A DNA stretch of 64,000 bases. Origin: Truepera sp. (GTDB lineage Bacteria > Deinococcota > Deinococci > Deinococcales > Trueperaceae). Positions 1 through 63,350 of this stretch are shown in pieces. Below the pieces are notes generated by a model. It saw only the letters and a list, made by a program, of their open reading frames with translations. It ran no database searches and had not been told where the DNA came from. The DNA lies in the NCBI GenBank assembly GCA_965218435.1, contig CBDCKW010000009.1:2176001-2240000 (forward strand). Direction: 5' to 3'. Position 1 is the first letter of the stretch. The number at the start of each line of letters is the position of its first letter. A program made the translations under genes and the position numbers.

Positions 1-1232
1 CCGCAGCCGACGGGAACATCATCTCGTTTGAACGTATCCGCGAAGAGCTGCGCGCCGGTAAGGGCCTCGGTCTGGCGATGAAAGCAGGCTTCAGCCACTC
101 GATTCCGGCCATTATTGACACGCACATGGCGATTTTGCTCTCAGCGGCGGCGCTGTATCAGTACACTACCGGCCCGGTCCGCGGCTTCGCTATCACACTC
201 GCCATCGGCGCGATCGCCTCGGTTTTTATGAACTCGGTAATGGTGCCGTTTGCCCTCAACACAGTGTTTTCGCGTTCGCGCCGTCCGCTTTTGCCCAAAG
301 GGATTCACGTCCAAGGCCTTAAGTTCGTCAACAAAGCGCCCGTTATTATGACGTTATCTCTCGTGTTGGCGGTCGCCGCGCTCGGCTTTGTCTTTGTCCG
401 CGGCCTCAACTTGTCCACCGACTTTACCGGCGGGAGCGACATCCTCCTCAGCGTTCCCGAGACGGTCAACGTCAGCGATGTGCGCAGCGGGATTGATCAG
501 CTCGGCGTGGCTGGCATCAACGGCTCAGGCGCAACCGTGCAAGAGGTGCAAGACACGACGATTGCCGGTAAAGAGATTTCGGTACGGGTCGGGCAAACGC
601 AAAATGAGGCTGACAGCGGCACCTTAGCGACCAAACTCGCGGCAGTCGTCGGCGGTCAGGTGTTGCAAAACAACTTCGTCGGGCCTTCGGTGGGTGAAGA
701 CCTGCGGCAGAGTGCGATTTTGGCGGCGCTCGTCGCGGTTGTGCTGATTCTCATTTACGTCGCGTGGCGCTTCTGGCCGAACTGGATTGTCGCGGTGGCG
801 TCTATTATCGCAACCGTTCACGACGTCGGGATTGTACTGGGAATTTTGGCGCTAGTCGGGGCACAGTTCAGCATTCCGGTTTTGGCCGCCATTTTGTTCG
901 TCATCGGCTACTCGCTCAACGATTCGATCATTATTTCCGACCGTATCCGCGAGAACTTACGCGTTCACAAAGGGATGGACTACCGCGAGCTCGTAGACAT
1001 GTCGGTCAACCAAACCCTATCCCGAACGCTGATGACCTCGCTGACGACGCTGTTACCGGTGCTGGCACTGTTTTTCTTCGGCGGCAGCGTGCTTCACGAC
1101 TTTAGCCTGGTACTCCTGATCGGCATCGGTTTCGGGACGTACTCGAGCATCTTCATTCTCGCCCCGATGGTCGTCTGGTTTCAAAACCGTCAGGGTAGAA
1201 GGCCAGCGAGAGCGCAGCGGCGCACCGCTTAA
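1..1232 (+). CDS. secDF: Protein translocase subunit SecDF (fused), 5' end outside the window
   Basis: The frame is open from base 3 and reads ADGNIISFERIREE (SecD motif) and GPVRGFAITLAIG. It then has the SecF motifs DFTGG, VGPSVG, GYSLNDSIIISDRIRE and QTLSRT. Confidence 0.95.
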   Translation, partial: AADGNIISFERIREELRAGKGLGLAMKAGFSHSIPAIIDTHMAILLSAAALYQYTTGPVRGFAITLAIGAIASVFMNSVMVPFALNTVFSRSRRPLLPKGIHVQGLKFVNKAPVIMTLSLVLAVAALGFVFVRGLNLSTDFTGGSDILLSVPETVNVSDVRSGIDQLGVAGINGSGATVQEVQDTTIAGKEISVRVGQTQNEADSGTLATKLAAVVGGQVLQNNFVGPSVGEDLRQSAILAALVAVVLILIYVAWRFWPNWIVAVASIIATVHDVGIVLGILALVGAQFSIPVLAAILFVIGYSLNDSIIISDRIRENLRVHKGMDYRELVDMSVNQTLSRTLMTSLTTLLPVLALFFFGGSVLHDFSLVLLIGIGFGTYSSIFILAPMVVWFQNRQGRRPARAQRRTA

Positions 1233-1258
1233 GTGGTCTAGCCGACTTCAAACCTTTT

Positions 1259-1291
1259 AGCAGGGTAGCTTTAACAGCTGCCCTGTTTCTT
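1259..1291 (+). terminator. Intrinsic terminator after secDF
   Basis: Stem CAGGGTAGCT / AGCTGCCCTG followed by TTTCTT. Confidence 0.65.
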
Positions 1292-1463
1292 GCTCTGCGA
1301 AAGCCAATACTATGAGTTTATAATGAGGTCATAGGAGGAACGGAGGCGAGGCGGCAAAATTATAAGAGCGGCGCAGCGAGGTGGTTTGAGGCTTAGCTGA
1401 CAGCCACTTTGTAGTTGGAAGTGCTGGGGGGCAATTTTGTAGGAGAACGCAAGGAGGTTCAAA

Positions 1464-2915
1464 ATGAGGTTTTCAGTTAAGTACTATGGTGCATTATTAT
1501 TTATGTCTCTGCTGCTGTCCGGGAAGGTACTTGCCCAAGAACAGTGGCAGCTTGATCAAGCAGCGGGGAAATACTGGCATGTAGAAAAAGACGAAGTTCG
1601 CTCATTCGACCTAAAAGAGGAAAATCCGGGACTAATCCGGGTAGCACCAGAGAAAGATGGCAAGATAAATATCACAATACTTGCACAACTTGAGCTTGAC
1701 ATGTCAGGTGACCCAAAAGTTCGTTACTCGTTTAACCAAGACATTCAAACGGCAGGCTCATCTTCTGAACAATGGCTAAATTTTAGTTTATTTGGCGCTA
1801 CACAAATGGTTGCTTCGCAAAAGTTTGTAAAGCAGTTCATGCACTGGGCTGAAGCAGATGGGTTCGTTGATGTTGAAATAACAGACAAGAACGGCGATGT
1901 AGCACTCTGCCGGTTTGTTCTCACAGGGTTTGCAAATATCTACAATGAGCTGGCTAGCGAGCTCAACATCGCACAGATTGGCCCGAACGCATCCGAAGGT
2001 TGGCAGATCGAAAAAGGCAGAATAACAAGAGTCACAAATGTTGATGGGCAGAAGATTAAAGTAGTTGTCATTGGTAGAGACGAAGAGCCCGAAATACGCT
2101 TTTACCCAGATGCCGAGTTTACACGTAACGGAGAAACTAGAGTTCGAGCTGATAATGACAGAGGAAATCTTGATCGCTTTGAGTTTTCGATCTGGTCAAC
2201 CGTTCTTGAAGAAGGCCGGCGTGGGTATTTAGTTGCACCCACATCAAAGTTCGACACACTCCAGGACTCATCTTCGATCCAGTACACAATTGAGTTAATA
2301 GATAGAAACGATAAGCATGTAGTAAGGACATTTGAGGTTGCAGATTTATTACCTGCTTTTGACACTATGCGTAGCCGATACCCTGAACTTGCGATCGGAT
2401 CGAAGAATTCTCAATACTATGTGCGTTTCAATGTAGAACCGGCTGGCGCAAAGGTTGCTATAGACGAGATGTTCATCTTTAGATGGGTTGAAAAGGGCTT
2501 TATAAGTGGCCCGTCTTCTACTGTTGAGCTTTCAGAAGGACTCTACAGATATAGAAGTTCGCTTCCGGACTACTTTGATTTCGACGGTGAATTTATAGTC
2601 CCAGAGGACACGATAATCAATATTGAAATGAAACCACCTTCTGGTGCACTAGCTGAGTCTATTGAAAATGGTTACGTCACAGCTGAGCTTATCGGTGAGG
2701 AGACTTGGCCATTTGAGGCTGATGAAGGCAATCTCTCATGTGAAGAAGACAGTATGGCCATAGTAGAGATAGATGACGAACGGTACGCGCTTAACCGCGC
2801 AGCTGAAGACCTTTACCCAACTGTTGAGCCTATGCTTGACTACGGCGAAGGTTTAGAAGATGTTTCGCCGTTTGTCGAAAGAGCCTTGAGTCTGTGTGGC
2901 TCTGTCGAGAACTGA
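1464..2915 (+). CDS. Secreted hypothetical protein with a PEGA-like segment and a C-terminal YebY/DUF2511-like domain
   Basis: SD AAGGAGG and a signal peptide ending VLA-Q. The segment VRFNVEPAGAKVAID...LSEGLYRY is PEGA-like. The C-terminus WPF..EG.L.C...YALN..A...SPFVERALSLC resembles YebY. The gene is visibly AT-richer than its flanks. Confidence 0.7.
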   Translation: MRFSVKYYGALLFMSLLLSGKVLAQEQWQLDQAAGKYWHVEKDEVRSFDLKEENPGLIRVAPEKDGKINITILAQLELDMSGDPKVRYSFNQDIQTAGSSSEQWLNFSLFGATQMVASQKFVKQFMHWAEADGFVDVEITDKNGDVALCRFVLTGFANIYNELASELNIAQIGPNASEGWQIEKGRITRVTNVDGQKIKVVVIGRDEEPEIRFYPDAEFTRNGETRVRADNDRGNLDRFEFSIWSTVLEEGRRGYLVAPTSKFDTLQDSSSIQYTIELIDRNDKHVVRTFEVADLLPAFDTMRSRYPELAIGSKNSQYYVRFNVEPAGAKVAIDEMFIFRWVEKGFISGPSSTVELSEGLYRYRSSLPDYFDFDGEFIVPEDTIINIEMKPPSGALAESIENGYVTAELIGEETWPFEADEGNLSCEEDSMAIVEIDDERYALNRAAEDLYPTVEPMLDYGEGLEDVSPFVERALSLCGSVEN

Positions 2916-2957
2916 ATTGATTGGGTCTCGCATTACTATGAACTGCTAAAGTAAGGA

Positions 2958-3194
2958 ATGAGCACTCGAGTCACCCTCACCAGCAAAGGGCAGATGACGA
3001 TTCCACAAGAGGTGCGGCAACGCTTAGGACTCAAACAGGGCGATCAGGTCGTGTTCGTCACCGAAAACGGGCCGACCGTGATGAAACCGGCGCGAGGCGA
3101 GGACAATCCTTTTATACAGTATGCCGGGGCGTTGGGAACCTTTGAAACCGAGGCCGAAGTCAACGCTTGGTTAAGCGACCTACGAGACGACTAG
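2958..3194 (+). CDS. AbrB/MazE/SpoVT-family antitoxin-like DNA-binding protein, no adjacent toxin
   Basis: TLTSKGQMTIPQEVRQRLGLKQGDQVVF signature. An inverted repeat TTACT...AGTAA lies just upstream (2933-2954). Confidence 0.88.
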   Translation: MSTRVTLTSKGQMTIPQEVRQRLGLKQGDQVVFVTENGPTVMKPARGEDNPFIQYAGALGTFETEAEVNAWLSDLRDD

Positions 3195-8773: not shown

Positions 8774-10204
8774 GTGGACATGAACATCTCCGCAGACGTC
8801 TTTGGCCGAGTTATCACGACTGTCTTTTGTCTCTTGATTACCTTCGGAACTGCCCAGACCGCACCTACTCAGGACAGCCTGACTCCGGCAGACGCTCATC
8901 CGGCAGACGCTCAGACGCTTACAGACAAGGTGACGCCGCAGGGCATCCGCGCACATATGGCGGCCCTACAAAGGGTCGCGGACACGCACGGGGGCAACCG
9001 CGCCGCCGGAACGCCGGGATACGCAGCGTCGGTACGCTACGCCGAACAGACGCTGCGGGCAGCGGGTTATACGGTGCAGCGGCAGCCCTTTACGGTGACG
9101 TTGACCAAGACATTGGCTGAAACCGGGCACACCACAGGTAAAGGTGTGAGTGAAGCGTCATTTGACCCTAACGTGATGGCGGGCTCACCCAATACAGCGG
9201 TGGGCGGCCTCACGGCAGCCTTGGTGCTACCCGAAGACCCCCTCGGCTGCACGGCTGAAACCGAGAGACGGGCTGGTATTCAAAACAAGTTGCGCGGCGC
9301 GGTCGTGCTTATCAAACGCGGTAGCTGCACCTTTGCCCAAAAATCACGAAATGCCGCTGCTGCAGGTGCGGTCGCCGCACTGATCTATAACGATGAGCAG
9401 GACGGTCCCCTTTTTGGGTCGCTCGGTGACGCGCCTGAACCCGACGTTGTTCCGACCGCGGGTTTAACCCAAAAGATGGGCAAACAGCTGGTAGAGAGGC
9501 TCAAACGCGAGACGGTGAGGGTGAGGCTCGAGCTCCGCGTTTCACGGATGACCCGCAGAACGGCCAACGTCATTGCCGAACTTCCCGGTACGGCTCAAAG
9601 CGTCGTCATGGTCGGGGCTCACCTCGACTCGGTACCTGGAGGCCCCGGTATCAACGACAACGGCAGCGGCGTCGGACTGGTTTTAGAGCTTGCTCGAGGA
9701 CTAGCCCAAGAACAAGGAGTACGTTTCGCTCTCTGGGGCGCTGAAGAACTCGGTTTGTTAGGTTCAGAGCATTATATCGGCAGCCTCTCCCCCGCCGAGC
9801 TAAAAACTATTCGGGCGTATCTGAACTTCGACATGCTCAGCTCACGGAACGCTGCCCCCTTCGCTTACGGCGACCCGGCGCTGACCGAGCTGTTTACGGA
9901 AACTTTTGCGGCGCAGGGCCTGACGCTGCTGCCCGACGCTGTGGGCGGTAGGTCCGACCACGCCCCTTTCGAGGCGGCGGGCGTCCCGGTGGCGGGGCTG
10001 TTTAGCGGCGCGGAAGGGCTTAAACCGGAGGGTGAGGTCAACCGTTATGGGGGTGACGCGGCTCCTTACGACGCGTGTTATCACCGGGCGTGCGACACCT
10101 TGAAGAGCTCGAGCACGCCCACCGCGACCCGTTATTTAGACCTTATGGCCGGCGCTGCCGCCGACGCGCTAGAGCACCTACTTAGCCAGCAAACGACCGA
10201 GTAG
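8774..10204 (+). CDS. Secreted M28-family aminopeptidase with PA domain
   Basis: Signal peptide, GNRAAGTPGY and the PA-domain motif RGSCTF. Zinc-site motifs GAHLDSV, GINDNGSG, GAEELGLLGS, NFDM, RSDH and YH. Confidence 0.92.
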   Translation: MDMNISADVFGRVITTVFCLLITFGTAQTAPTQDSLTPADAHPADAQTLTDKVTPQGIRAHMAALQRVADTHGGNRAAGTPGYAASVRYAEQTLRAAGYTVQRQPFTVTLTKTLAETGHTTGKGVSEASFDPNVMAGSPNTAVGGLTAALVLPEDPLGCTAETERRAGIQNKLRGAVVLIKRGSCTFAQKSRNAAAAGAVAALIYNDEQDGPLFGSLGDAPEPDVVPTAGLTQKMGKQLVERLKRETVRVRLELRVSRMTRRTANVIAELPGTAQSVVMVGAHLDSVPGGPGINDNGSGVGLVLELARGLAQEQGVRFALWGAEELGLLGSEHYIGSLSPAELKTIRAYLNFDMLSSRNAAPFAYGDPALTELFTETFAAQGLTLLPDAVGGRSDHAPFEAAGVPVAGLFSGAEGLKPEGEVNRYGGDAAPYDACYHRACDTLKSSSTPTATRYLDLMAGAAADALEHLLSQQTTE

Positions 10205-10419
10205 CTTCAGAGTAGTTAGCACCGGTTCAACTTCCAGAAGCTATTTCAAACCTCTTTTTGTGCCCTCAACGAGCTGCGCTGGGTCTTGGTCTTTTTGAGT
10301 ACATGAGAACCGCTGTTCTTTTGAGCGAGCTACCGGCTAGGTTCTTTATGCTGACTGCTTGCTGCTGAATGACACGCTGCCACTCGAGCCGAGTCTGCCG
10401 AGTCTAAGGTCAACCAAAC

Positions 10420-21897: not shown

Positions 21898-23541
21898 ATG
21901 ACACACGCCGGTAAACCCGCCCCCGACGAACTCCTGGCTAACGTCCCCCGCCTCGTCGCGGCGTATTACACCACGCAACCCGACCCCGAAAATCCTGCCC
22001 AACGCGTCTCGTTCGGCACGTCTGGACACCGTGGTACGTCCCTTTCGGGAAGCTTTAACGAAGCGCATATCTTAGCGGTGACACAGGCCCTCTGCGAGTA
22101 CCGGCAGAGCGCAGGCGTGACCGGGCCACTGTTTGTCGGGATGGACACGCACGCGCTTTCTGAACCTGCGCTGATGAGCGCAACCGAGGTGCTTGCAGCC
22201 AACGGCGTGACGGTCATGCTCCAAGAAGGTCGTGGCTACACCCCGACCCCGGCTGTGTCACACGCGATTTTAGGGTATAACCGGGGACGCAAAGACGGCC
22301 TTGCGGACGGCGTGGTCATCACCCCGTCGCACAACCCACCTGAAGACGGCGGCTTTAAGTACAACCCGCCCTCCGGTGGTCCCGCCGATACGGACGTCAC
22401 CAAGCAGATTGAGACGCGGGCGAATGAACTGTTGCAGCGCGGGCTCGAGGATGTCAAACGCATCCCGTTTGAGCGGGCGCTAAAGGCCGACACCACGCAC
22501 ATGTTCGACTTTGTCAAGCCTTATGTAGACGATTTAGGGACCATCATTGATATGGACGCGGTGGCGAACGCAGGTCTTGACCTCGGTGTTGACCCGTTGG
22601 GCGGCGCGAGCGTTGGGTACTGGGAGCCGATTGCGGAGCGTTACGGGCTGGGCTTAAACGTCGTCAACCCGAGCGTTGATCCCAGATTTGCGTTTATGAG
22701 TGTGGATAAAGACGGCAAAATTCGGATGGACTGCTCGTCGCCCTACGCGATGGCCGGACTGATTGGGCTCAAGGACGACTTCGACCTCGCCTTTGGCAAC
22801 GACCCCGACGCCGACCGGCACGGCATCGTCACGAAAAGCAGCGGGCTCTTAAATCCGAACCACTACTTGTCGGTCGCGGTCAATTACCTCTTTCAAAACC
22901 GTCCGGGGTGGCGGAGTGACGCGGCGGTGGGCAAGACTTTGGTCTCGAGCTCGATGATTGACCGGGTGGCGGCTAGGCTCGGGAGGAAGCTCGAGGAAGT
23001 TCCCGTCGGGTTCAAGTACTTCGTCTCGGGCCTCCTCGACGGCGCTTACGGCTTCGGCGGCGAAGAGTCGGCGGGCGCGTCGTTTCTACGGCAAGACGGC
23101 ACCGTCTGGACGACCGACAAAGACGGCCTCATCATGGACCTCCTGGCTGCTGAAATTTTAGCCAAAACGGATCGCGACCCCGGCGAGCATTACCAGGACT
23201 TGGAAAACGAATTCGGCGCACCTGTCTACGCCCGCACCGACGCCCCAGCAAACGCTGAACAAAAAAAAGTTCTCGCCGACCTCTCCCCCGATCAGGTGAC
23301 AGCCGACACCCTGGCGGGCGACGCGATTACCGCCAAACTGACCCGCGCCCCGGCCAACGACGCCCCGATTGGCGGTCTCAAGGTCGTTACCGAGTCGGGT
23401 TGGTTCGCGGCGCGGCCTTCGGGAACCGAAGAGATTTACAAAATCTACGCCGAGTCGTTTAGGGGCGAAGCGCACCTTAAAGAGATTCAGAACGAGGCGC
23501 AAGACATCGTTCGGGGTGCGTTTGAGCAAGCTGGGTTATAA
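21898..23541 (+). CDS. pgm: Phosphoglucomutase (alpha-D-glucose-1,6-bisphosphate-dependent)
   Basis: [30 protein letters not shown] and RPSGTE. Confidence 0.97.
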
Positions 23542-23626
23542 ACTTCGTTACGGCATATTAGGGTCTAACTTGTCACGATGAGACCCCAATTTGTTGGTAA
23601 GTGCTGCAAAGTGGCAGAATGGGGCT

Positions 23627-23818
23627 ATGCCAAACCGCGACGAGCTAAATACAGACGTTCCAAAAGAAAGCGTTACAAATGTAGAGATTCCCATCACCAA
23701 TACCGACGAGGACTTTCCTGATTCTTGGAACGACGAATCAGGGGACTATTCACATAATGAGCCGGAGGCCGAGCCACTCGCCGACCCGTCGCCACTGGAC
23801 CCCGGCCAACTGCTTTAA
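23627..23818 (+). CDS. Small acidic, probably disordered protein
   Basis: D/E/P-rich 63-aa ORF with a CAGAAT -10-like element 6 nt before the ATG. Confidence 0.5.
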   Translation: MPNRDELNTDVPKESVTNVEIPITNTDEDFPDSWNDESGDYSHNEPEAEPLADPSPLDPGQLL

Positions 23819-23876
23819 GGCGGGACATCTATGTTGGTCATCTTCTCTTTACGCCCGCTTGACGACCTCAACCCCG

Positions 23877-25706
23877 TTACGACCTAAGCTGCTGATCTAA
23901 AAAACTAACGATAGCGGGATAAGCCACCAGCTTATTGGCGAGCTTGACCAGGCCGTGCCCTTCGTCGCTAAAGACTAGAAACTCTGTTTCGACGCCTCTG
24001 GCCTCGAGCGCCCCCACCAGCTGCTCAGCTTCACCGAGCGGCACCCGTGGGTCGTTCGCGCCGTGGATGACCATCAGGGGTGCCTCGAGCTTACCGATGT
24101 GACTTAGCGGTGAGATGTCTTCTAAAAACGTCCGGTCTTCTGCCAGACTGCCGTACTCCGCCTCCCGGTGTGCGCGGCGGTAACCGCTGGTGTTTTCCAA
24201 AAACGTGACGAAGTTGCTGATGCCTACGATGTCAACACCTGCCGCGAACAGCTCGGGGTAGGTCGTGAGCGCCGAGAGCACCATAAAGCCGCCGTAAGAA
24301 CCGCCGTAAACAGCGATCCGGTCTTTTGCTACAGCCGGTTGCGACGCAAGCCACTGAGCCCCATAAGCAAGGTCGGCAACCGAGTCCATGCGCTTTTCCA
24401 CATCGTCGAGGTGGCTGTAGCGGTTGCCGTAACCTGTCGAGCCGCGCACGTTGGGGACGAGCACCGCGTAACCGTGTTGAACGAGGTACTGGGCGAGAAA
24501 GTTGAGGGTCGGGCGCGACTGTCCTTCAGGGCCGCCATGGACAATCATGACGGCGGGCATGGGCTCGGTTTGGGCTTTGGGTTGGTAAAACCAGGCAGGA
24601 ATGTCTCTCTCGTCGAAGGTAGGGTAGTGAACGAGTTCTGGCGCGGTAAACGTGGTGGGTAAGAGACCGCCATGTGAGGAACACGTCACTATCTGCAAGG
24701 TGTCCGGCTCGAGGTTCCAGACATAGATGTCACTCGTCCGGGTGGCACCGTAAAAAGAGAAGGTTAGACGTTTCGAGTCAGCAGAGAAACTGAGCCGCGC
24801 GTCGAGCATGGCCGCGACGCCTAGCGCGTCCGCCGGGTCGGGTGCGCTGTGAGTGGTCTCCGTCACGAGGTCGTAGCGGTAGAGCTTGCCTGCGCCGCCC
24901 TCGTTGACGACGTACGCCAGCGTGCGGCTGTCCGGGGCGAGAGTCGCGCAGTCAACGTCCCAATTCGGTTGTACGAGCGGTGTGAACTCACCGGTTTCCA
25001 GCTCGAGGCGTGCGAGGTACAAAAAGTCGGAGTCCGAATCGGTGATAACAATAAGCGACCGGCCTTCACCGGTGTAGGCGACGGCGCTGTAACGCGCCGC
25101 AGCTGAAGACAGCAGACGGGCCGTACCTGACACGGTGTCAAGCTCGAGCAACTCGCTGAAGGAAGAACTTTGCGCTCTACTCAGGGTTACACGTTTTCCG
25201 TCAGGAGCCAAGATGACATCTTGAAGGTAACCGGGTACGTCATTTTCCCAAAGCAGTTCGGCTGGCTTACCGGGTGTTTGGACGTACAGGTCAAAGAGCA
25301 CCTTGTCTCGGCGGTTGGCAGCGAAGAAGAAACAGCTACCGTCCGCCGACCAGCTGCCGAAGGCGTGCATCGCCCCCTCAAACCTTCCGGTAAGCCTCAC
25401 CTCTTCCCCGGTTGCAGGGGTCAGCAAAAAGAGCTGAGCGTTCTCACTGCCGCCTTCATCTCTAGCAAAAATCAGCTTCGGTTCGTCCGGTACAGGCGAG
25501 AGCCAGACCCCCTGGACGCGGTCAGCTCCGAAGGTGAGTTGGTCAGGCCAGAGCGGTTCACCCTTCCCGATAGGTAAGCCGACGCGCCAGACTTGCGGGA
25601 GTCCGGTTTGGGTGCCCAGAAACACGAGGGTTTGACCGTCAGGAGCTAGGTTTGGGGCGTAAGCCGCGCTGATGTTGAGAAATTGGGCGATAGAAGCGTC
25701 CATCAC
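23877..25706 (-). CDS. S9-family (prolyl oligopeptidase/acylaminoacyl) peptidase
   Basis: Beta-propeller region, HGGPE, and catalytic triad motifs GGSYGG, NDPRV and DEGHG. Confidence 0.93.
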   Translation of the reverse strand: MMDASIAQFLNISAAYAPNLAPDGQTLVFLGTQTGLPQVWRVGLPIGKGEPLWPDQLTFGADRVQGVWLSPVPDEPKLIFARDEGGSENAQLFLLTPATGEEVRLTGRFEGAMHAFGSWSADGSCFFFAANRRDKVLFDLYVQTPGKPAELLWENDVPGYLQDVILAPDGKRVTLSRAQSSSFSELLELDTVSGTARLLSSAAARYSAVAYTGEGRSLIVITDSDSDFLYLARLELETGEFTPLVQPNWDVDCATLAPDSRTLAYVVNEGGAGKLYRYDLVTETTHSAPDPADALGVAAMLDARLSFSADSKRLTFSFYGATRTSDIYVWNLEPDTLQIVTCSSHGGLLPTTFTAPELVHYPTFDERDIPAWFYQPKAQTEPMPAVMIVHGGPEGQSRPTLNFLAQYLVQHGYAVLVPNVRGSTGYGNRYSHLDDVEKRMDSVADLAYGAQWLASQPAVAKDRIAVYGGSYGGFMVLSALTTYPELFAAGVDIVGISNFVTFLENTSGYRRAHREAEYGSLAEDRTFLEDISPLSHIGKLEAPLMVIHGANDPRVPLGEAEQLVGALEARGVETEFLVFSDEGHGLVKLANKLVAYPAIVSFLDQQLRS

Positions 25707-25743
25707 CCATACTACGTCTTACCGAACAGCGAACTGAGCGACG

Positions 25744-26397
25744 CTAGCTCGAGGAGGGTTTCGTCAGCTTGGTCAGCTGCCACATTCCTGACGCGCGGGT
25801 GACGACCGGCGTGTGACCGGCGCTGGTCGCCGCCCGCAAGAGCTGTTCCGGGTCGTGCAGAAAAAAGCGGTACTCCTGACCGAAGAGCCGCATACTGAAC
25901 GCGCAGACTTTCTGGAGCAGCGGCATAAACCAGAACGGTCTTGGATAGGTAAAGGCGAGCGTCCCCCGGCTGCACTGCGCCGCTTTTGTGAGCAGCGCCG
26001 TGGCGTCGGGATAGCAGCACACCACCCGGTCGAGCACGACTACATCGGCGGGCGCGTAGCGGCGCTCCGAAACGGCGAAATCATCTTGATAAAAAGCCGA
26101 CTTTGCGTCAACCCCGGCGTGCGCCGCCACCTGCCGCGCCGCACGCAGATAAGCTGCCGAAATGTCGACAAAAGTGCCACGGCCCGCGCCCTTTCTCAGC
26201 AAAGTCGTACCCACCGCGCCGATGCCGCAGCCGATATCGAGCACCGTCGCGCCGGAAGTGAGAGGCTCGAGCTCCGCGATGATGCTCCGCTGACGCCGGT
26301 TCAGCCCTCGACGCTGGTAAGCTTGCAGTTCCTGACGTACTAGCCGCCCGGTAAACACTCGGTTGAGACCGTTAGGGTCACAACAGTCCATACCCAT
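25744..26397 (-). CDS. Class I SAM-dependent methyltransferase
   Basis: VLDIGCGIG and ADVVVLDRVVCCYPD. Confidence 0.88.
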   Translation of the reverse strand: MGMDCCDPNGLNRVFTGRLVRQELQAYQRRGLNRRQRSIIAELEPLTSGATVLDIGCGIGAVGTTLLRKGAGRGTFVDISAAYLRAARQVAAHAGVDAKSAFYQDDFAVSERRYAPADVVVLDRVVCCYPDATALLTKAAQCSRGTLAFTYPRPFWFMPLLQKVCAFSMRLFGQEYRFFLHDPEQLLRAATSAGHTPVVTRASGMWQLTKLTKPSSS

Positions 26398-26520
26398 AGT
26401 TTGTACCTGTAGTCCATACCCGTCAGCATAGGGCGCGGGACACAGCGCCGCAAGCTGTAGTTGACCAGCGTGTGGCCCGACAGCACCGAGCCGCGCGTCT
26501 AGCTCAACCCTAACTACCGG

Positions 26521-27441
26521 TCAAGGCAGCTTGTTGCCCGCCGCCAAGTAAACGCCGTACCACTCTTCGCGTGTAAGGTGAACGTCGCTCGCTCGGCAGC
26601 AGTCTTTCAGCCGCGTGAGGTTCATCGTGCCGGTAATCGGCTGCATCTTCGCCGGATGCCGTAACAGCCACGCCAGCGCCATCGTCGTATTGCTGACGCC
26701 GTAGTGCTCGGCTAGTTCGTCAATCTTCGCGTTGAGTTCCGGGAACTTGTCGCTGCCGAGAAACACCCCTTCAAAAAAGCCGTACTGAAAAGGCGACCAG
26801 GGCTGAATGGTGATTTTGTGTTTACGGCAGTAGTCGAGGATATAACCGTCGCGGTCAACGGCGGCGTCATTTTCCATGTTGACGTTAAAGCCGCTCGTAA
26901 TCATGGTGGCGTTGGTGATGCTCAGTTGGAGCTGATTGGCGACTAAAGGCTGCTCCACATAGTCTTTAAGCAAGTCGATCTGATGCGGATGCTGATTGCT
27001 GACGCCGAAATGCCGGACTTTACCGGCGCGTTCCAGTTCAGTAAAGGCCTCGGCTACTTCCTCAGGCTCTACCAGCGTGTCGGGGCGGTGTAAGAGCAGG
27101 ACGTCGAGATAGTCGGTTTTTAGGCGTTTAAGGCTGCCGTCAACCGACGCCAAGATGTGCTCTTTGGAAAAGTCGAACATCCCCGGCCGGATGCCGCACT
27201 TAGACTGGAGGATCACCTGTTCACGCACCTGAGCGTTCATGCCGAGAGCACCTGCAAAAATTTCCTCACAGGTACCGCCCCCGTAAACATCGGCGTGGTC
27301 GAAGAAGTTGGCACCTTCCTCGAGCGCCGTATGGACAAACCGTTCGGCCTCGGTTTTGTCCAGCGAATCAATCCGCATACACCCGACCGCCACGACCGGT
27401 ACGTCTAAATCACTTGTTCCCAGTTTGATCGTTCGCATCAT
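26521..27441 (-). CDS. Aldo/keto reductase (YcsN/YdhF-like)
   Basis: FFDHADVYG, SKCGI, LLHRPD, GVSN and PWSP, with SD AAGGAG. Confidence 0.92.
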   Translation of the reverse strand: MMRTIKLGTSDLDVPVVAVGCMRIDSLDKTEAERFVHTALEEGANFFDHADVYGGGTCEEIFAGALGMNAQVREQVILQSKCGIRPGMFDFSKEHILASVDGSLKRLKTDYLDVLLLHRPDTLVEPEEVAEAFTELERAGKVRHFGVSNQHPHQIDLLKDYVEQPLVANQLQLSITNATMITSGFNVNMENDAAVDRDGYILDYCRKHKITIQPWSPFQYGFFEGVFLGSDKFPELNAKIDELAEHYGVSNTTMALAWLLRHPAKMQPITGTMNLTRLKDCCRASDVHLTREEWYGVYLAAGNKLP

Positions 27442-27614
27442 CGTCTCCTTTTTTCCGTAAAAATTTGTACCGTAAAAAGCCCGGTGCCCTACCAAAGGGT
27501 TAAATCGTAGGTTGAGCTATCAGCAGCATACGGTTTCTTGCCAGAATACCGCGCCGGGTACCGCGTAAAACTCCAACAAATGCGACCCTGCAGCCTCGAG
27601 CCCCGCCCCACTAC

Positions 27615-28760
27615 CTACACCGCAACCGACCAACCAACCTCCGCGACAACTTTGGCATAATAGTCATCGTCTAATGCCAGACCAAACCCCGGACTCGGGG
27701 GCACCCGGACGTTTCCCTCTGAAATAGCATACCCGGACGCGCCTAAACCCTGAACCTGCCCTTCATCCCATTCGACAAACAAAAAGCCTTTGACCGAAGG
27801 GGCCAGGTGGCCGGAAACATAGTTACCGTAAGGGCCGCCATAATTGTGAGGGGCCGACTTGACCCCGGCCTCGTCCAGACGACGCCCCAGCTCTAACCAG
27901 CGGAGAAACCCGTAAGCCCGAATGTCGTACTGAAGCACGTCAATAAGGCCCTGTTCGGCCCAGCTAACGAGCAGCGGCGACGCCAAGCCTTCACCGTCGG
28001 CAATCATGACCTCGAGGTTTCGCTCGAGCAACCACGTTTTAAGCTCGCGGAAGAGCTCGGGGTCTTCATGAAAGGGCTCCTCGAGCCAGTAAACGTCAGC
28101 GTCTGCGGTCTCTTGCAGCACCCGTTTGGTCAGGTTGAGATTATAGCCGTTGTTGGCGTCAATCATGATGGGGGCTCGCCCTACGACGTCACGAACTCCC
28201 CGGATGACCGCAATGTCGCGCCTCGTCCCCGTCTCCAAGTCCATGTGCCTGGCCCCGCGCCCGATCTTGATCTTGAAAGCGCGGTGGCCCTGCGCCCAAC
28301 CTTCTCCGGCTTTAGACTGCAGCAGTGCGACCGCTTCGGCGTCGCTTTTTAGCTGCAGGTCGTCTATGAGGAGCGACGTGTCATAGCAAGGAACCTCGAG
28401 GGGTTTACCCAAAGTTTCAGGGGCAAACAGCGCGTAAACCGGCTTCCCGGCGACGCGCCCCCACCAGTCGAGCAAGGGAAACTCCAAACTTTCGTAGCCG
28501 CTGCGGAGCTGACCATCGGCAGCAAAGATGTCCTCAAGAGAACTTCCCACCATAGCTTTGGCGGAGTCGTAAGAACAGGTTGACCAGCCGAAGCCGGTGC
28601 TGCCTGCGGCGGTAAGCCTGACGAGACTTACCGCAAAAGTTTGACCGTGATTGCCCAGCCGCGCGTTGGAGCCCGCCACCCTGCGCCTCGTTCCCGGCAG
28701 AGGTGCCCACTCGAGCCGTTCGATACGCCCGCCTAACGGAGTTTGCGTCAACCATGTCAT
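27615..28760 (-). CDS. Mandelate racemase/muconate lactonizing enzyme family protein
   Basis: KIKIGRG, IMIDANNGY, WLEEPF, ADGE and HNY. Confidence 0.88.
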   Translation of the reverse strand: MTWLTQTPLGGRIERLEWAPLPGTRRRVAGSNARLGNHGQTFAVSLVRLTAAGSTGFGWSTCSYDSAKAMVGSSLEDIFAADGQLRSGYESLEFPLLDWWGRVAGKPVYALFAPETLGKPLEVPCYDTSLLIDDLQLKSDAEAVALLQSKAGEGWAQGHRAFKIKIGRGARHMDLETGTRRDIAVIRGVRDVVGRAPIMIDANNGYNLNLTKRVLQETADADVYWLEEPFHEDPELFRELKTWLLERNLEVMIADGEGLASPLLVSWAEQGLIDVLQYDIRAYGFLRWLELGRRLDEAGVKSAPHNYGGPYGNYVSGHLAPSVKGFLFVEWDEGQVQGLGASGYAISEGNVRVPPSPGFGLALDDDYYAKVVAEVGWSVAV

Positions 28761-54796: not shown

Positions 54797-54805
54797 TATC
54801 TAGCT

Positions 54806-55372
54806 ATGAGCAAGGTCAACAAAAGCCAATTCGCCATCCTCGGTATTCTCGGACTAGGGCCGCACTCGGGGTACGACATCAAGAAGCTGACCGACCTCAG
54901 CACCCGACACTTTTGGGCCGAGAACTACGGCAGCCTCTACCCGACGCTTAAACGGCTCGAGCAGGCGGGCCTAGCCACCGTCCAGCGTGAGGCGCAAGAC
55001 GGCAAACCCGACCGCAAGGTCTACACCATCACCGAGGCGGGGCGAGAGGTGTTGCAGAGTTGGCTCGAGTCACCTGTCCAAGAAACGCCGCCGCGCAGTG
55101 AACTCTTGCTCAAGCTTTTTTTAGGCCGTCAGACAACTCTCGAGGTCAGCGTCATACATTTGGAGAGGTTCCGAACAGAACAGACCGAACTCATCGTCAC
55201 GTACCAGGGGCTCGAGCGGTGGCTCGAGCTCGAGCAAGCCGGTGACCCCAACCTCCCGTACTGGCTTTTGACCCTCTCTTACGGTCGGGTTCAGGCCGAG
55301 GCGCTTAAAGGGTGGAGCGAGGCGAGCCTCGAGACCTTACAACGCGTCGCCCAAAAGGAGCACGATGACTAA
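54806..55372 (+). CDS. PadR-family transcriptional regulator (AphA-like C-terminus)
   Basis: ILGIL..GPHSGYDIKK, GSLYPTLKRLE and RKVYTITEAG. Confidence 0.95.
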   Translation: MSKVNKSQFAILGILGLGPHSGYDIKKLTDLSTRHFWAENYGSLYPTLKRLEQAGLATVQREAQDGKPDRKVYTITEAGREVLQSWLESPVQETPPRSELLLKLFLGRQTTLEVSVIHLERFRTEQTELIVTYQGLERWLELEQAGDPNLPYWLLTLSYGRVQAEALKGWSEASLETLQRVAQKEHDD

Positions 55373-58309: not shown

Positions 58310-60211
58310 CTAAAGCTCGACTTGCGTCCCTAATTCAACGACTTGGCCGGGAGGCAGATGATAAAACGACGAGGCCGAGAGCGCGTTACGTGACATCACG
58401 GCAAAGAGGCGTTCGCGCCAGAGGGCCATTCCGGGGCGGTTGGTCGCAAACACTGTCTCCCGCCCGACAAAGTAAGTCACATCCGAAAGCGCGATTTCAG
58501 CTCCGTTGGGCCATACGCTTCTCAGGACGCGCGGGACGTTGGGCTGCTCCATAAAGCCGAAATGCATCACCACCTGATAGAACTCGTTACCGAGCGGCGT
58601 CAGCGTCACACGCTGCGAGCGTTTGACACGCGGCCGCTCTTCAGTTTTGACCGAGAGCAAAATCACCCGTTCGTGCAGCACTTTGTTCGTTTTGAGGTTT
58701 TGCGCGAGCGAATAGGGCGTATGCACCGGCGAACGGAACATAAAGATCGCCGTACCCGGCACCCGGTTGGGTGGGTGTTCGGTAATTTCACCCAAAAACT
58801 GCCCAAGCGGTTCGACGCGTTCGTCGAGGCGCTCGGATAAGATCAGGCGGCCCCGTTTCCACGTACTCAGCAGCGTAAACACGACAGCTGCCACCAAGAG
58901 CGGAAACCAGCCTCCCTGCGGCACTTTGAGGATGTTCGCCCCGAAAAAAGACAGGTCAACGACGAGTAACAGAGCTGCGAGTAGGGTTGCGCCAAAGATG
59001 TTCCAGTGCCACCGTTCGCGGGCAACGACGTAAAAGAGGATGGTCGTAATCACCATATCGGTCGAGACGCCAACGCCGTACGCCGCCGCCAAATTCGACG
59101 ACGAGCGGAAGCCCAACACCAGACCGATACACGCGATCATCAAAATCCAGTTGATCGAGGGGATATAGACCTGACCGAACTCACGTGATGAGGTGTGCCG
59201 GATGGCTAGGCGCGGGATATAGCCGAGCTGAACCGCCTGCATAGTGAGCGAAAACGCTCCCGAAATCAGGGCTTGTGAGGCGATCACCGTCGCCATCGTT
59301 GCCAGAATCACCACCGGGTAAAGGCCCCACTCGGGGACCATCCGGTAAAAGGGGTTGAGAGCAGCTTCAGGGTCGCCTAAAATTAGCGCACCTTGGCCGA
59401 AGTAGTTTAAGAGCAGCGCCGGGAGCACCAGCACGAGCCACGCGAGGCGAATCGGGCGTTTGCCGAAGTGACCCATATCGGTATAGAGCGCCTCACCGCC
59501 GGTAACGACCAAAAACACCGAACCGAGAACAAAAAATCCAACCGCACCATTTTGTATAAAAAAGCGGAGCCCATAAAAGGGGCTGATAGCGACGAGCACG
59601 TCGGGCCGCTGCACGATTTGGACAAGACCCAGCACAGCGAGCGTGGAGAACCACAAAATCATAATGGGGCCGAACACCCGGCCGACGCTGCCGGTCCCGA
59701 GGCGCTGCGTGGCAAAGAGTAAGACCAAAATTCCAATCGTAATCGGAATGATGTAGGGGTCAAAAAACGGCGTCGCCACGCCTAGCCCTTCAACGGCGCT
59801 TAAAACTGAAATCGCCGGAGTAATCATCCCGTCGCCGTAAAGGAGCGACGCGCCGAACAGCCCGAGGATCACCAGTAGCCAGCGGCCCCCGCCACGTTTG
59901 ACCTGCAGCGGCGTCACGAGTGAGGTCAGGGCCAAGATACCCCCCTCACCGTGATTGTCGGCTCTCGTGACGAAGCTGATGTACTTGATGGTAATGACAA
60001 TAATCAGCGACCAAAAGATTAAAGACAAGATACCAAGCACATTGCCGGGCGTTGGCACAAGACCGTAATGCTCACCCAAGGACTCACGAAAGGCGTAGAG
60101 CGGGCTCGTCCCGATGTCGCCGTAAACGACGCCTAGTGCGCCGAGTGCGAGCAGATAGAGATAACGGCCGTGCGGCGTTTTGGTGTGATCTGTTTCATTG
60201 TCAAACGACAT
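58310..60211 (-). CDS. kup: KUP/HAK/KT potassium transporter
   Basis: GVVYGDIGTSPLY, DNHGEGG, GDGMITPAISVLSA, GGEALYTDMGHF and GQVYIP. Confidence 0.97.
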   Translation of the reverse strand: MSFDNETDHTKTPHGRYLYLLALGALGVVYGDIGTSPLYAFRESLGEHYGLVPTPGNVLGILSLIFWSLIIVITIKYISFVTRADNHGEGGILALTSLVTPLQVKRGGGRWLLVILGLFGASLLYGDGMITPAISVLSAVEGLGVATPFFDPYIIPITIGILVLLFATQRLGTGSVGRVFGPIMILWFSTLAVLGLVQIVQRPDVLVAISPFYGLRFFIQNGAVGFFVLGSVFLVVTGGEALYTDMGHFGKRPIRLAWLVLVLPALLLNYFGQGALILGDPEAALNPFYRMVPEWGLYPVVILATMATVIASQALISGAFSLTMQAVQLGYIPRLAIRHTSSREFGQVYIPSINWILMIACIGLVLGFRSSSNLAAAYGVGVSTDMVITTILFYVVARERWHWNIFGATLLAALLLVVDLSFFGANILKVPQGGWFPLLVAAVVFTLLSTWKRGRLILSERLDERVEPLGQFLGEITEHPPNRVPGTAIFMFRSPVHTPYSLAQNLKTNKVLHERVILLSVKTEERPRVKRSQRVTLTPLGNEFYQVVMHFGFMEQPNVPRVLRSVWPNGAEIALSDVTYFVGRETVFATNRPGMALWRERLFAVMSRNALSASSFYHLPPGQVVELGTQVEL

Positions 60212-60367
60212 TCATACCCCTTACCGCTCACGACATTAACACATCGTTCCAGCTCTAAGAGGGATATTCTTACCACCATCTTGACGCCCCACTTAGTCCT
60301 TTACCCGGAGCGATAGTTAACACCTCGAGACAAGCTGTTAAGCGGCCCAAAGGCGTATCGTAAACGT

Positions 60368-60955
60368 ATGCGTTTTACTCTTTTAACGTTGATGTTGGTT
60401 CTCTCTGGACTTACCGGACTACAGACAGCGGCGGCCCACGCGACAATCGTTTTGGGGCACTTTGAGGTCTTACCTGAACGCCCCGCTGAGGGCGCGCCGC
60501 TCGAGCTCCGGCTAAAGCTCGAGGACCCCACCCAAGTTCCGATTCAAGACGCCGTCGTCTTGGCCGACCTGCGCCCTGTCAGAAGGCCGCACGCCGAACC
60601 CACTCGCGCCGAGTTTAGCGAAACTCAAACCCCCGGTACCTATGAGGCGACGGCAACCTTGGCGCAGCCCGGCCCGTACCGAATCGTGCTCCGCGACCAG
60701 ACCTACCGGCAAGAAGAGGCGACGGCGACGCTCGCTGAGCCCTTACGGATTGGAAACTCAGGCCCCGCACGAGCCAATTCTGCCCAAGACTTTAACTTTC
60801 CGCCGACTGCGACCGGTTCAGCAGGGTGGCGCACCTGGCTGTTATGGCTGCTCGGCCTACCGATTGTCGCCGCGCTGCTCGTTACCGTTTTGGTTTTGAC
60901 GCGAGGGAATAACGAAGAAACCAAGAAGGCTACGAAATCCGGCAAAGCCTCATAA
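60368..60955 (+). CDS. Secreted/membrane-anchored YtkA/FixH-like protein
   Basis: Signal peptide ending AAA-H, an Ig-like ...PGTYEA...PGPY segment and a C-terminal TM segment. Confidence 0.6.
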   Translation: MRFTLLTLMLVLSGLTGLQTAAAHATIVLGHFEVLPERPAEGAPLELRLKLEDPTQVPIQDAVVLADLRPVRRPHAEPTRAEFSETQTPGTYEATATLAQPGPYRIVLRDQTYRQEEATATLAEPLRIGNSGPARANSAQDFNFPPTATGSAGWRTWLLWLLGLPIVAALLVTVLVLTRGNNEETKKATKSGKAS

Positions 60956-61687
60956 GTGAGCCTGTTCGACCAGACCTCCGGGACGCTGCTGAACCTCGTG
61001 ACGGTGCTCGTCGGCTCAACCCTTGGGCTCTCTTTACGCGGGCGTTTGCCCGAACGGGTGGTCACCACGACGATGCAAGCCATCGGCCTCACCACGCTCT
61101 TTATCGGGATCGGTAACGCCTTTGACCTGAACAAAGTAAGCGAGCCGCCGGGGGTGATTTTGGCGTTGATGGCGCTCGCACTCGGCGGCATTTTAGGCGA
61201 GTGGTGGCGTATTGAAGAGGGTTTGGAAGGTCTCGGCGAAACGCTTAAACGCCGCTTTAAGGGGCAAGGGCGCTTTACCGAAGGGTTTGTGGCCTCGAGC
61301 CTGCTGTTCTGCGTCGGACCCCTAACCCTGATCGGCTCGGTCCAAAACGGCCTCGCCGGGGACAATTCATTTTTAGTCTTAAAGTCAACGTTGGACGGGT
61401 TTGCCGCGCTCGCGCTCTCGGCAACGTTCGGGTTCGGCGTCATCTTTTCAACCGTGGTGATCGCGCTCTATCAGGGCACATTGTCGCTCGCTGCCGGACG
61501 TTTTGCCGCGCTGATTCCCGACCCCTCGAGCGACCCACGCGTGCTGCTCGTCAACGGCGTCGGCGGGATTATGATCGTCGGGCTCGGCTTTAACCTCTTA
61601 GAGCTTAAGCGGATTCGGGTGGCGAGTTTGCTGCCGTCACTTGCGCTGGTTGTAGTGCTTTACTATCTAGGTTTACGTTTGTACTGA
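60956..61687 (+). CDS. DUF554 (YdfK-like) membrane protein
   Basis: GTLLN..TVL.GS, EGFVASSLLFCVGPLT.IGS and KSTLDGF. Confidence 0.92.
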   Translation: MSLFDQTSGTLLNLVTVLVGSTLGLSLRGRLPERVVTTTMQAIGLTTLFIGIGNAFDLNKVSEPPGVILALMALALGGILGEWWRIEEGLEGLGETLKRRFKGQGRFTEGFVASSLLFCVGPLTLIGSVQNGLAGDNSFLVLKSTLDGFAALALSATFGFGVIFSTVVIALYQGTLSLAAGRFAALIPDPSSDPRVLLVNGVGGIMIVGLGFNLLELKRIRVASLLPSLALVVVLYYLGLRLY

Positions 61688-61778
61688 CTTACTCATGATA
61701 TACTCACAGCAGACAGCAGAAAGTCACTGCCGCTCTTACTGCGCTGCTTTTTGACGTGCTGTCATCTGGAGGCAAAAG

Positions 61779-62555
61779 GTGAAGCGTTTTATAGCGTGGT
61801 TTGTCTTAGGGCTGCTCTCTCTAACTTGGGCACAACTCGACCCAGAAGCCGCACCATTTTTAGATTACGGTAGGGCGCTGCAACGTGCGGAAAAGCCAGG
61901 AACCTTAGTGGTTACCCTCTGCATAACCGGCTATCAAAACGGCAACGCGCAACCGGAACTGTGTACACATAGCGCCATAGATTACGTCAAAAGGCGCATG
62001 GCGGTCCGTATCACCGCACGTGAAGAGCCACGCTACAACAGCAATATGGTTTATCAAGACGGTCGCATCTATATGACAGACTTCGGGACAGACAAACTCG
62101 TGATGATGCCGCCAGAGCAGGCAGAGCCGATAGCGGAGACTCTGGAAAAGACTTTTGACACGGCTATGCAAAACAATTTTGTCCCGGACCAATTTGACAG
62201 CACCCATTACGACGGCCCGGTCAGCTACGGAAAGGTTATAAAGGGCGAGCAGGTCAGCGCGACGGTGACGTTACCTTTTACTGATCTAAAAGGCTCAGAC
62301 CCGAAACCGACCACCCTGCGCCTTGTTTTTAACGAGAATAAAGTGCTTTTAGGGACACTTACGCCGACGGATAAGGGGCCACTGCTGTCGGTTATCAATC
62401 ATCCGCAGACCAAAGTGACACCAGCCCAATTTTTCGATACCACGAGTTACCGGCTCGAGGATAAGAAACCCGTGCTGGTGAGTAAAAGCCGCGTCGTTCA
62501 GTTTCAATTTGACAAACCGCTCGACGAAAAGCTTTTTACCGTTCCTCAAAACTAG
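61779..62555 (+). CDS. Secreted hypothetical protein
   Basis: SD GGAGG and a signal peptide ending TWA-Q. It is beta-rich, and the C-terminus DKPLDEKLFTVP is reminiscent of LolA-like folds. Confidence 0.7.
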   Translation: MKRFIAWFVLGLLSLTWAQLDPEAAPFLDYGRALQRAEKPGTLVVTLCITGYQNGNAQPELCTHSAIDYVKRRMAVRITAREEPRYNSNMVYQDGRIYMTDFGTDKLVMMPPEQAEPIAETLEKTFDTAMQNNFVPDQFDSTHYDGPVSYGKVIKGEQVSATVTLPFTDLKGSDPKPTTLRLVFNENKVLLGTLTPTDKGPLLSVINHPQTKVTPAQFFDTTSYRLEDKKPVLVSKSRVVQFQFDKPLDEKLFTVPQN

Positions 62556-62566
62556 CGGCGGCAAAA

Positions 62567-62592
62567 TAGGTGCTCTCGGCTGAGAGCACCTA
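62567..62592. terminator. Hairpin terminator between convergent genes
   Basis: Perfect 11-bp stem TAGGTGCTCTC-GGCT-GAGAGCACCTA flanked by A runs. Confidence 0.8.
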
Positions 62593-62612
62593 AAACTTTA
62601 TGCGGGGTACGT

Positions 62613-63350
62613 TTAGAACGCCTTACGCCCTCTTAAGAGTGGCGGTAAAAGCGTCGCCACAAAGACGAGCATGAGTAGAAGCGCCACGATAATGACCAGC
62701 GGGTGCCCCCACTGCCCGATAGCAATCGCCAGAAACGTCCAGACAAAGACGCTGCCGTACACCGGATCGCGCCAGTTGACGCGTACCGTCAGGCCGATTA
62801 CCGTACCGACGAGCAGCATGATGATTGTCCAAAAGGTCGCGCCGCTCGTCCAACCGGACAAGAGGAGGGCGCTAGACGTATTCACAATCGTCGCCAGCGT
62901 CAGCCAACCCGCGTAAAGACTCACCGAATAACCGAGCCAGCGCAGCACGCCTTCGTGCTCGACACCGACGCCGAGGGCGCGGCGCATCGCAATGGCCGTA
63001 GCTAACAGGGCAAAGATAGTTAACACAGGGAGCCAGAGGTGGGCATCGGCAACGGAATAAAGCCAGATGGCGTTCAGCACAGCAGTTAGCGCCAACCAGG
63101 GGCGCAGCGCCTGGAGCCGGGGGTTTTCTTCTTGGTCGGGAAGCGCCTGATAAACCGCGAGGGCCAAGAGTCCCAGATAGATGGGTACCCAGATTAAAAA
63201 CGCGTAGGGGGCAGGTGTTAAGAGAGGCTCGAGCCCATACGTGTCGGCCGCGCCGCCGGGAGTAAAGGCTCTGACCGCAACTGAAAACGGGACGATGATA
63301 CCGGCCCAGGTCACCACAAGGACAAAGATTTGTTTCATTCTCTCGCTCAT
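62613..63350 (-). CDS. Tryptophan-rich sensory (TspO-like) membrane protein
   Basis: LTPAPYAFLIW..IY, LNAIWL and SLYAGWLTLAT..N. Confidence 0.8.
   Translation of the reverse strand: MSERMKQIFVLVVTWAGIIVPFSVAVRAFTPGGAADTYGLEPLLTPAPYAFLIWVPIYLGLLALAVYQALPDQEENPRLQALRPWLALTAVLNAIWLYSVADAHLWLPVLTIFALLATAIAMRRALGVGVEHEGVLRWLGYSVSLYAGWLTLATIVNTSSALLLSGWTSGATFWTIIMLLVGTVIGLTVRVNWRDPVYGSVFVWTFLAIAIGQWGHPLVIIVALLLMLVFVATLLPPLLRGRKAF

Follow-up and report, generated by a model that had tools for sequence, protein, structure and literature searches.

CTCGAG sites in the window and in the genome

The window, a stretch of 64,000 nucleotides from the Truepera sp. genome G000 (positions 2176001-2240000 of contig C9; assembly of 9 contigs and 4,805,864 bases), is strewn with the palindrome CTCGAG, which is the subject of this analysis. 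An earlier note on this stretch had put forward a motif resembling the highly iterated palindromes (HIPs) of cyanobacteria and acting at the DNA level, with about 135 sites found by manual scan, several dozen of them within an 8-mer. The features considered in the window are listed below; a dot means that no strand applies.

1142..63233 (.): dispersed CTCGAG field, 141 palindromes (48 as GCTCGAGC), part of 9,883 genome-wide
1142..1147 (.): example of a site in the nnC-TCG-AGn frame (genome-wide 1278 vs 242 shuffled)
1464..2915 (+): site-free open reading frame (ORF), 483 aa, 44.6% GC, no Pfam match, with two CTN-GAR codon pairs unconverted
9693..9698 (.): example of a site in the nCT-CGA-Gnn frame (genome-wide 467 vs 69 shuffled)
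10383..10388 (.): example of an intergenic site
13613, 15089, 27595, 31612, 37311, 37780, 52835 and 60324: further intergenic examples
54806..55372 (+): PadR-family regulator gene with 7 CTCGAG sites, the densest 500 bp of the chromosome
58310..60211 (-): kup potassium transporter gene, site-free, 57% GC, no sign of import

Counting gave 141 CTCGAG sites in the window (start positions 1142 to 63228) where an order-2 Markov model predicts 24.8, and 48 copies of GCTCGAGC against 3.9 under the same model, close to what the note had claimed; all 12 coordinates that it cited are CTCGAG sites. CTCGAG is the top hexamer of the window, with a z of 22.9. The whole genome holds 9,883 sites, corresponding to one per 486 bases or 2,056 per Mb, for an observed-to-expected ratio (O/E) of 5.2. 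CTCGAG is the sole 6-bp palindrome enriched genome-wide, the runner-up having an O/E of 1.13 and most others being avoided. The excess in this genome is real.

The 8-mer did not hold up as the unit. Genome-wide, GCTCGAGC was observed 2,508 times, and 2,563 copies are predicted from its constituent 7-mers. The unit is therefore the hexamer, and the octamer was ruled out, as the flanks behave independently. They show a graded preference, for G in front of the site and C behind it: G precedes 52% of the intergenic sites compared with 27% two bases further out, and at conserved four-fold positions G before the site reaches 77% versus 60%.

The excess occurs in all reading frames and between genes

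Genes were called with a simple dicodon model that gave 4,702 calls, and the best-scoring 3,851 were used for the frame tests, with 10 within-gene shuffles of synonymous codons as the null. According to these calls, 95 of the window's sites fall in the Leu-Glu frame, the remaining two frames have 10 and 21, and 15 lie in no called gene. In the 3,851 genes, the three frames hold 6174, 467, and 1278 sites versus 1949, 69, and 242 after shuffling, i.e., enrichments of 3.2-, 6.7-, and 5.3-fold, and intergenic gaps of at most 400 bp contain 755 sites where 114.6 are expected (6.6-fold). The claim that the motif occurs in every frame and between genes, and not merely as the Leu-Glu codon pair, thus survives the synonymous shuffles.

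The effect on codon choice is strong. The Glu codon that follows CTC is GAG in 95.5% of 6,468 cases, compared with 41-59% after nine other codons and 87% after TTC, and the base following nCT CGA is G in 467 of 519 cases. The Leu-Glu amino acid pair itself is raised (O/E 1.25; 1.11 in genes below 50% GC), and the Leu-Asp, Ile-Glu, and Val-Glu pairs are lowered. As the Leu-Glu frame holds 6,174 of the 7,919 coding sites, a preference for the codon pair CTC GAG or for the amino acid pair, or a compositional artifact, might be invoked. We consider this hardly credible. A codon-pair effect is contradicted by the off-frame and intergenic excess, both of the other frames being more enriched than the Leu-Glu frame; moreover, non-coding sites are conserved somewhat above permutations of the same bases (see below), and the excess recurs in independent assemblies.

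Sites are retained and gained relative to a congener

We compared the genome with 1.2 Mb of that of the congener G005, in which 640 orthologues were aligned at a mean of 84% amino acid identity. When the other five bases were shared, the site was present in both genomes at 583 of 596 Glu third positions, 645 of 694 Leu third positions, 132 of 140 Ser third positions, and 83 of 88 first-C positions, against the same base in 37-71% of cases for control contexts, although the demand for a shared context inflates these retention figures, to the detriment of the interpretation proposed below. A two-state fit at Leu third positions yielded a loss of 0.05 (95% interval, 0.03-0.08) versus 0.29 and 0.59 in two controls, and a gain of 1.12 (0.74-1.80) versus 0.47 and 0.56. 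Sites are lost roughly 6-12 times less and gained about twice more often than controls. The suggestion that some process creates or retains the sites is therefore borne out on both counts, and the bias toward site-creating substitutions that the note proposed to look for in orthologues is present.

At Leu third positions, the A, G, and T alternatives are all depleted, transitions and transversions alike. Deamination or very-short-patch repair was ruled out as the source, because the transversion neighbors CTG GAG and CTA GAG are drained like the transition neighbors. The substitution pattern is a fixation bias, as from selection or biased gene conversion, and not the product of one chemical mutation route. 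In the nCT-CGA-G frame of the first 400 kb, where cases are few, 4 of 25 sites are conserved, which is under the median hexamer. Non-coding sites are conserved in 26 of 62 cases versus 484 of 1,611 for permutations of the same bases (p 0.03). As regards variation within the species, the stretch was found in only 2 sequencing runs, both from a single sample and study that may be the source of the assembly.

Distribution along the chromosome, in low-GC genes, and in other replicons

The spacing of the sites is near random, with a coefficient of variation of 0.95, plus a short-range deficit. The proportion of CTN-GAR pairs that are CTCGAG, hereafter called occupancy, is 0.67-0.74 where an intergenic or other-frame site lies within 90 bp and 0.79-0.83 at greater distances, and gaps below 40 bp number 503 compared with 553±9 in 200 within-gene permutations. 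Among three control dicodons, CTCGAC dips below 20 bp and GTCGAG drifts from 0.25 to about 0.31, so that composition may have a small share in this deficit.

Occupancy is alike on the leading (0.795) and lagging (0.799) strands, and position in the gene has no effect. The gap between dnaA and dnaN, with its DnaA boxes, contains no CTCGAG, and one site lies upstream of dnaA; we found no cluster at the origin. The profile around gene starts and stops is flat, with no promoter or terminator pattern, and the only positional trend is a mild one, of 2.4 sites per kb in convergent gaps versus 1.9. A Fourier scan returned one marginal peak at 3.36 kb, at 12.3 times the mean where about 8.3 is expected for the maximum. 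With this single peak, and with a method that differs from that of Xu et al., a kilobase periodicity is not claimed.

The share of CTN-GAR pairs that are CTCGAG falls to 28-31% in genes below 50% GC, versus 75-79% in genes of at least 54% GC, and 33 of 580 long genes lack any site when 15.6 are expected. As a class trend, imports are poor in sites. The earlier note had taken the absence of sites as a mark of recent import and had named the ORF at 1464-2915 and kup as site-free. Both are indeed devoid of sites, though this is weak evidence, with Poisson probabilities of zero sites of 0.05 and 0.02, respectively. The idea holds for low-GC genes as a class, and the ORF is likely an import, weakly so when taken on its own. 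It fails for kup, which at 57% GC lacks CTCGAG because it has no Leu-Glu pair.

The excess extends to other replicons. It reaches 7.5- and 7.9-fold in two small plasmid-like units and 3.4-fold in a contig of 685 kb, and the Meiothermus phage MMP17 has 87 sites compared with 21.9 expected.

Each of the two small units was assembled as a partial or near-complete double (contigs C6 and C8, about 12,981 and 10,471 bases), and C8 has a 619-aa and a 1031-aa version of one ORF.

A candidate methyltransferase

Family searches for DNA methylation enzymes in G000 returned mostly type I, type III, and IIG-like systems, together with two C5 enzymes, one D12 enzyme, and one gamma-class enzyme, P0001, all on contig C9 for the following four.

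3672240-3673922 (-): P0001, gamma-class adenine methyltransferase, 560 aa, with PF02384, PF07669, and PF22837, outside the window
679786-680859: C5 enzyme
3898200-3899096: second C5 enzyme
2709705-2710424: D12 enzyme

The C5 and D12 enzymes may be further writers of CTCGAG. P0001 homologues were found in 5 of 5 congeners and in 21 of 36 genomes of the family. In a larger draw, they were present in 36 of 70 genomes of family f1 (a count that includes one unpublished genome, G256, used for no other claim) and 19 of 68 of f4, and in none of 70 of f2, 23 of f3, and 19 of f5. From similarity and our own reading of the sequence, the gene lies among housekeeping genes (dnaG, V-ATPase or an M50 peptidase), and two of the loci adjoin the dnaA-dnaN-eno-pyk block. 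Twenty-six Trueperaceae rows group in one starred clade when 58 of 100 P0001 homologues are placed in a tree. In six frames of G000 we detected neither a nuclease of the partner family (profiles A1 and A2) nor one of the XhoI type; PF04555 (XhoI) has 0 matches in G000 and matches 3 of 61 relatives. P0001 is an orphan methyltransferase conserved in the lineage.

Outside Deinococcota, a nuclease-like gene stands beside the P0001 homologue at 61 of 72 loci, compared with 2 of 34 in Deinococcota, where the flanks are no longer than 1.5 kb at 26 of the 34 loci. The profile of this partner nuclease matches two XhoI-family nucleases (probability 86, E 5e-6). When the site-rich, nuclease-less L029 and L034 are set aside, no other of the 4,096 hexamers is as strongly depleted by z in the remaining 70 of the 72 loci as CTCGAG (850 vs 1,359); when the 64 palindromes are ranked by ratio in the 61 loci with a nuclease, it comes third from the bottom, at 0.62. 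Because of this depletion and of the XhoI-like partner found elsewhere, CTCGAG was taken as the likely target of P0001. P0001 thus likely recognizes CTCGAG, and the sites of this genome are likely N6-adenine-methylated by it. The matches listed for two P0001 homologue searches (120 each) include no named enzyme characterized by SMRT (single-molecule real-time) sequencing, no solved structure matched P0001, and a phage collection gave weak matches only, both for P0001 and for the XhoI-adjacent methyltransferase described below. The methyltransferase that the note had postulated therefore has a candidate in the genome, but methylation as the cause of the excess is not established and is challenged by family f5.

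In G005, an intact gene for a 222-aa nuclease-like protein, absent from G000, is located directly downstream of the P0001 orthologue (L095:866-1534, minus strand); the methyltransferase-nuclease pair has thus been either split or re-formed within one genus. At L014-L093, in Acidobacteriota, Planctomycetota, and others, a widespread M.Eco57IB-like enzyme accompanies a protein of 220-300 aa that is remotely XhoI-like, with no Pfam match above the cut-off. This pair is likely a CTCGAG restriction system without a family model of its own. The two loci L029 (labeled Myxococcota) and L034 (Bifidobacteriaceae) have a P0001 homologue, no nuclease match, and 45 CTCGAG versus 8.3 and 16 versus 7.4, respectively. 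Either these contigs belong to Deinococcota and were mis-binned, or they are cases from beyond the phylum.

CTCGAG across the order

We counted CTCGAG in 61 genomes and expressed its enrichment as an index relative to two one-base neighbors, the relatives not being independent of one another. The index is 0.08-0.36 in f2, a single genus that we infer to be Deinococcus, 7.9 in G000, and 23-55 in f5. Family f5 is by far the richest, with 23,235-28,018 sites per genome or about one per 160-220 nt, and its samples of 20 kb and shorter exceed the Markov expectation by 8.6 to 17 times. Among the related, hence non-independent, genomes of f1, 15 of 25 methyltransferase carriers reach an index of 4 or more, versus 1 of 12 non-carriers.

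Two more methyltransferase types were found in the order, neither of them in G000. One, which is adjacent to an XhoI-family gene in genome G001 and to which P0001 is only about 21% identical over about 200 residues, is carried by 6 genomes out of 61. Five of these lack the P0001 type, and every one of the six has an index of at least 4.3. The other is TaqI-like and occurs in 4 more genomes; for three of these, loss of CTCGAC inflates the index.

In genus g35 (G039, G043, and G055), which has the TaqI-like methylase, CTCGAC is down to 9-54 copies on the forward strand, and about 2,000 CTCGAG are kept. The f5 genomes G040, G044, G048, G052, G056, and G060 have only 4-24 copies of GAGCTC in 4-5 Mb.

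Possible mechanisms

The explanation that we favor, tentatively and in the knowledge that it may well be wrong, is a recombination-coupled drive in favor of site-bearing alleles, the sites themselves being likely methylated by P0001. P0001 would mark CTCGAG by N6-adenine methylation, and a hypothetical reader of the likely methylated sites would bias uptake, integration or heteroduplex repair over about 100 bp. Site-bearing DNA would thus be favored on homologous recombination, after transformation or between chromosome copies, and the drive, rather than a function of each single site, would keep the density up and shift proteins toward Leu-Glu. This bacterial group is polyploid. A drive fits the data because the bias acts both ways, on loss and on gain, no chromosomal pattern is apparent, the effect saturates with distance, protein composition is shifted, and plasmids and a phage share the excess. 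G000 has comEC, mutL, and a mutS-like gene. In cyanobacteria, HIP1 was reported to raise transformation in a way that depends on methylation, as related second-hand in PMC13756078.

A number of observations weigh against this proposal. No reader protein for CTCGAG was identified, and as drive and selection predict the same substitution pattern, the orthologue data do not separate them. Of the 25 f1 carriers, 9 have an index below 3, a single subclade whose branches are mostly long accounting for eight of these, and P0001 homologues outside Deinococcota mostly come without CTCGAG enrichment; the methyltransferase is therefore not sufficient. Family f5 lacks P0001 homologues (0 of 6 and 0 of 19 genomes) and the TaqI type, and has one weak match to the XhoI-adjacent type among 6 genomes. 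We found no methyltransferase common to 5-6 f5 genomes using PF07669, PF01555, PF00145, PF02086, PF02384, PF22837, and three protein queries, a search in which the PF22837 control matched nowhere and which other methylase classes would have escaped. In 50 kb of an Allomeiothermus silvanus plasmid, there are 63 sites versus 20.3 (3.1-fold), and the six methyltransferases listed for this species in the relevant part of PMC4752239 include none for CTCGAG. Regarding the specificity of P0001, just 4 of 22 partner nucleases match Pfam XhoI, with a best E of 0.083 that is below the cut-off, this being nevertheless their best-shared Pfam match, and in the nuclease-bearing loci the depletion of CTCGAG is exceeded by that of CAGCTG and AAGCTT. 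Finally, G005 is equally enriched in spite of its intact partner nuclease gene, and comEC and mutL are also present in G045, which avoids CTCGAG.

A broader proposal, which we hold somewhat more loosely still, is that a second HIP system, of independent origin, is common to most Deinococcales other than the Deinococcus-like family. CTCGAG would have flipped from avoided to driven, with a reader biasing recombination within about 100 bp and thereby rewriting codons, proteins, plasmids, and phages. Unrelated restriction systems would have supplied the methyltransferase on at least three occasions, and the richest family may be able to do without it.

The absence of a shared methyltransferase from the f5 search, the excess in the A. 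silvanus plasmid with no listed CTCGAG methylase, and the three unrelated methyltransferase types in different enriched genomes can also be accounted for by an abundant, methylation-independent CTCGAG-binding protein, acting in chromosome organization or protection from degradation. Selection would then keep a site every few hundred bases, and methyltransferases of several families would follow, since a site-rich genome is exposed to XhoI-type nucleases. The short-range exclusion suits a protein footprint, g35 with its TaqI-like methylases has nearly lost CTCGAC yet not CTCGAG, and Xu et al. argue that selection shapes the distribution of HIP1 (PMC5861425). Against this explanation, which is the main rival of the drive and which we rate as somewhat less likely than it, there is no origin or terminus, strand or promoter pattern and only one marginal periodicity peak, and the phage and the small plasmid-like replicons match or exceed the chromosome in site density; no such protein was identified. 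Distinctly less probable in our view is a ratchet of the type proposed by Elhai, in which methyl-directed mismatch repair after replication preserves site-creating mutations up to a density at which the sites can direct repair everywhere. It would account for a gain raised for all base changes, and a saturation with distance does exist, as do mutL and a mutS-like gene; the preference for G before the first C recalls the G-meC model (PMC4390886). That model, however, reaches its plateau at a density of about one site per 1,000 nt, compared with one per 486 nt here and about 160-220 nt in f5, with saturation observed at about 90 bp. It also requires methylcytosine, whereas the published marks in this order are N6-methyladenine (m6A), and the strongly reduced loss rate is not readily explained by it.

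Comparison with known systems

CTCGAG works like a HIP and shows the testable features of this class, as the note had supposed. It is neither HIP1, nor an origin-clustered motif, nor part of an active XhoI-type system; it is a counterpart of HIP1 outside cyanobacteria. Like cyanobacterial HIP1 (GCGATCGC) and the alternate HIPs GGCGCC, rCCGGy, and GCsGC (PMC4390886, PMC5861425, PMC13756078), it is a dispersed short palindrome, and its 2,056 sites per Mb lie in the range of about 500-2,500 per Mb given for HIPs by Elhai (PMC4390886). As with HIPs, sites occur in all frames and between genes and are conserved at orthologous positions, and the orphan P0001 is a candidate methyltransferase of likely matching specificity. 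It differs from HIP1 in phylum and sequence, and also in its unit, a hexamer whose G/C flank is graded where HIP1 is an octamer. Its O/E of 5.2 here is below the value of >16 that Xu et al. call HIP1-rich (PMC5861425), the mark in this order is m6A whereas that of HIP1 is 5-methylcytosine, and no convincing kilobase periodicity was found. HIP1 itself is not overrepresented, as GCGATCGC has 1 copy in the window and its core CGATCG is avoided genome-wide (O/E 0.15).

In the same order, active m6A CTCGAG methyltransferases without a listed cognate nuclease were identified by SMRT sequencing in Marinithermus hydrothermalis, Meiothermus chliarophilus, and M. ruber (PMC4752239). For these orphans of Blow et al. 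2016 (M.Mhy14884I, M.Mch9957IV, and M.Mru1279II), the pertinent passages and supplement rows report methylation rather than genome-wide overrepresentation (PMC4752239). The CTCGAG motif of Nocardia clusters at the replication origin (PMC4752239), whereas oriC here has no site. Systems of the XhoI/PaeR7I type (PF04555) act on the same site, and enzymes of the P0001 family have a nuclease partner with a remote likeness to XhoI. Unlike in those systems, no nuclease was found in this genome, CTCGAG is hoarded and not avoided, and P0001 is M.Eco57IB-like. The DNA uptake sequences and uptake signal sequences of Neisseriaceae and Pasteurellaceae are also in genome-wide excess, attributed to biased transformation, and are scarce in imported DNA. 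They are non-palindromic and 9-10 bp long, whereas CTCGAG is a 6-bp palindrome for which no uptake receptor was identified here.

No paper on CTCGAG overrepresentation in Deinococcota was found in the literature, most subscription journals and REBASE being outside our coverage. HIP1 has been unexplained for three decades and studied in one phylum, and CTCGAG provides a second case, with another sequence and another methyl mark. Its graded range within a single order, from avoidance in f2 to about fivefold here and 10- to 17-fold in f5 samples, with and without a candidate methylase, makes it possible to find out which parts such a system requires. Some genera of the order can be cultured, and methylase knockouts and assays of allele conversion should be practicable in them. 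CTCGAG can also be used in this group as a marker for imported DNA and for assigning plasmids and phages to hosts.

Other observations

The avoidance of other palindromes in G000 is deep, with O/E values of 0.02 for GGCGCC, 0.03 for GGGCCC, 0.04 for TTTAAA, 0.07 for AGGCCT, 0.11 for both GCCGGC and GCATGC, and about 0.13 for RGATCY. This exceeds what the methyltransferases found would account for. At C9:3165815-3168971 of the same genome, a match to a type III-like methyltransferase extends over two consecutive ORFs, with an internal stop.

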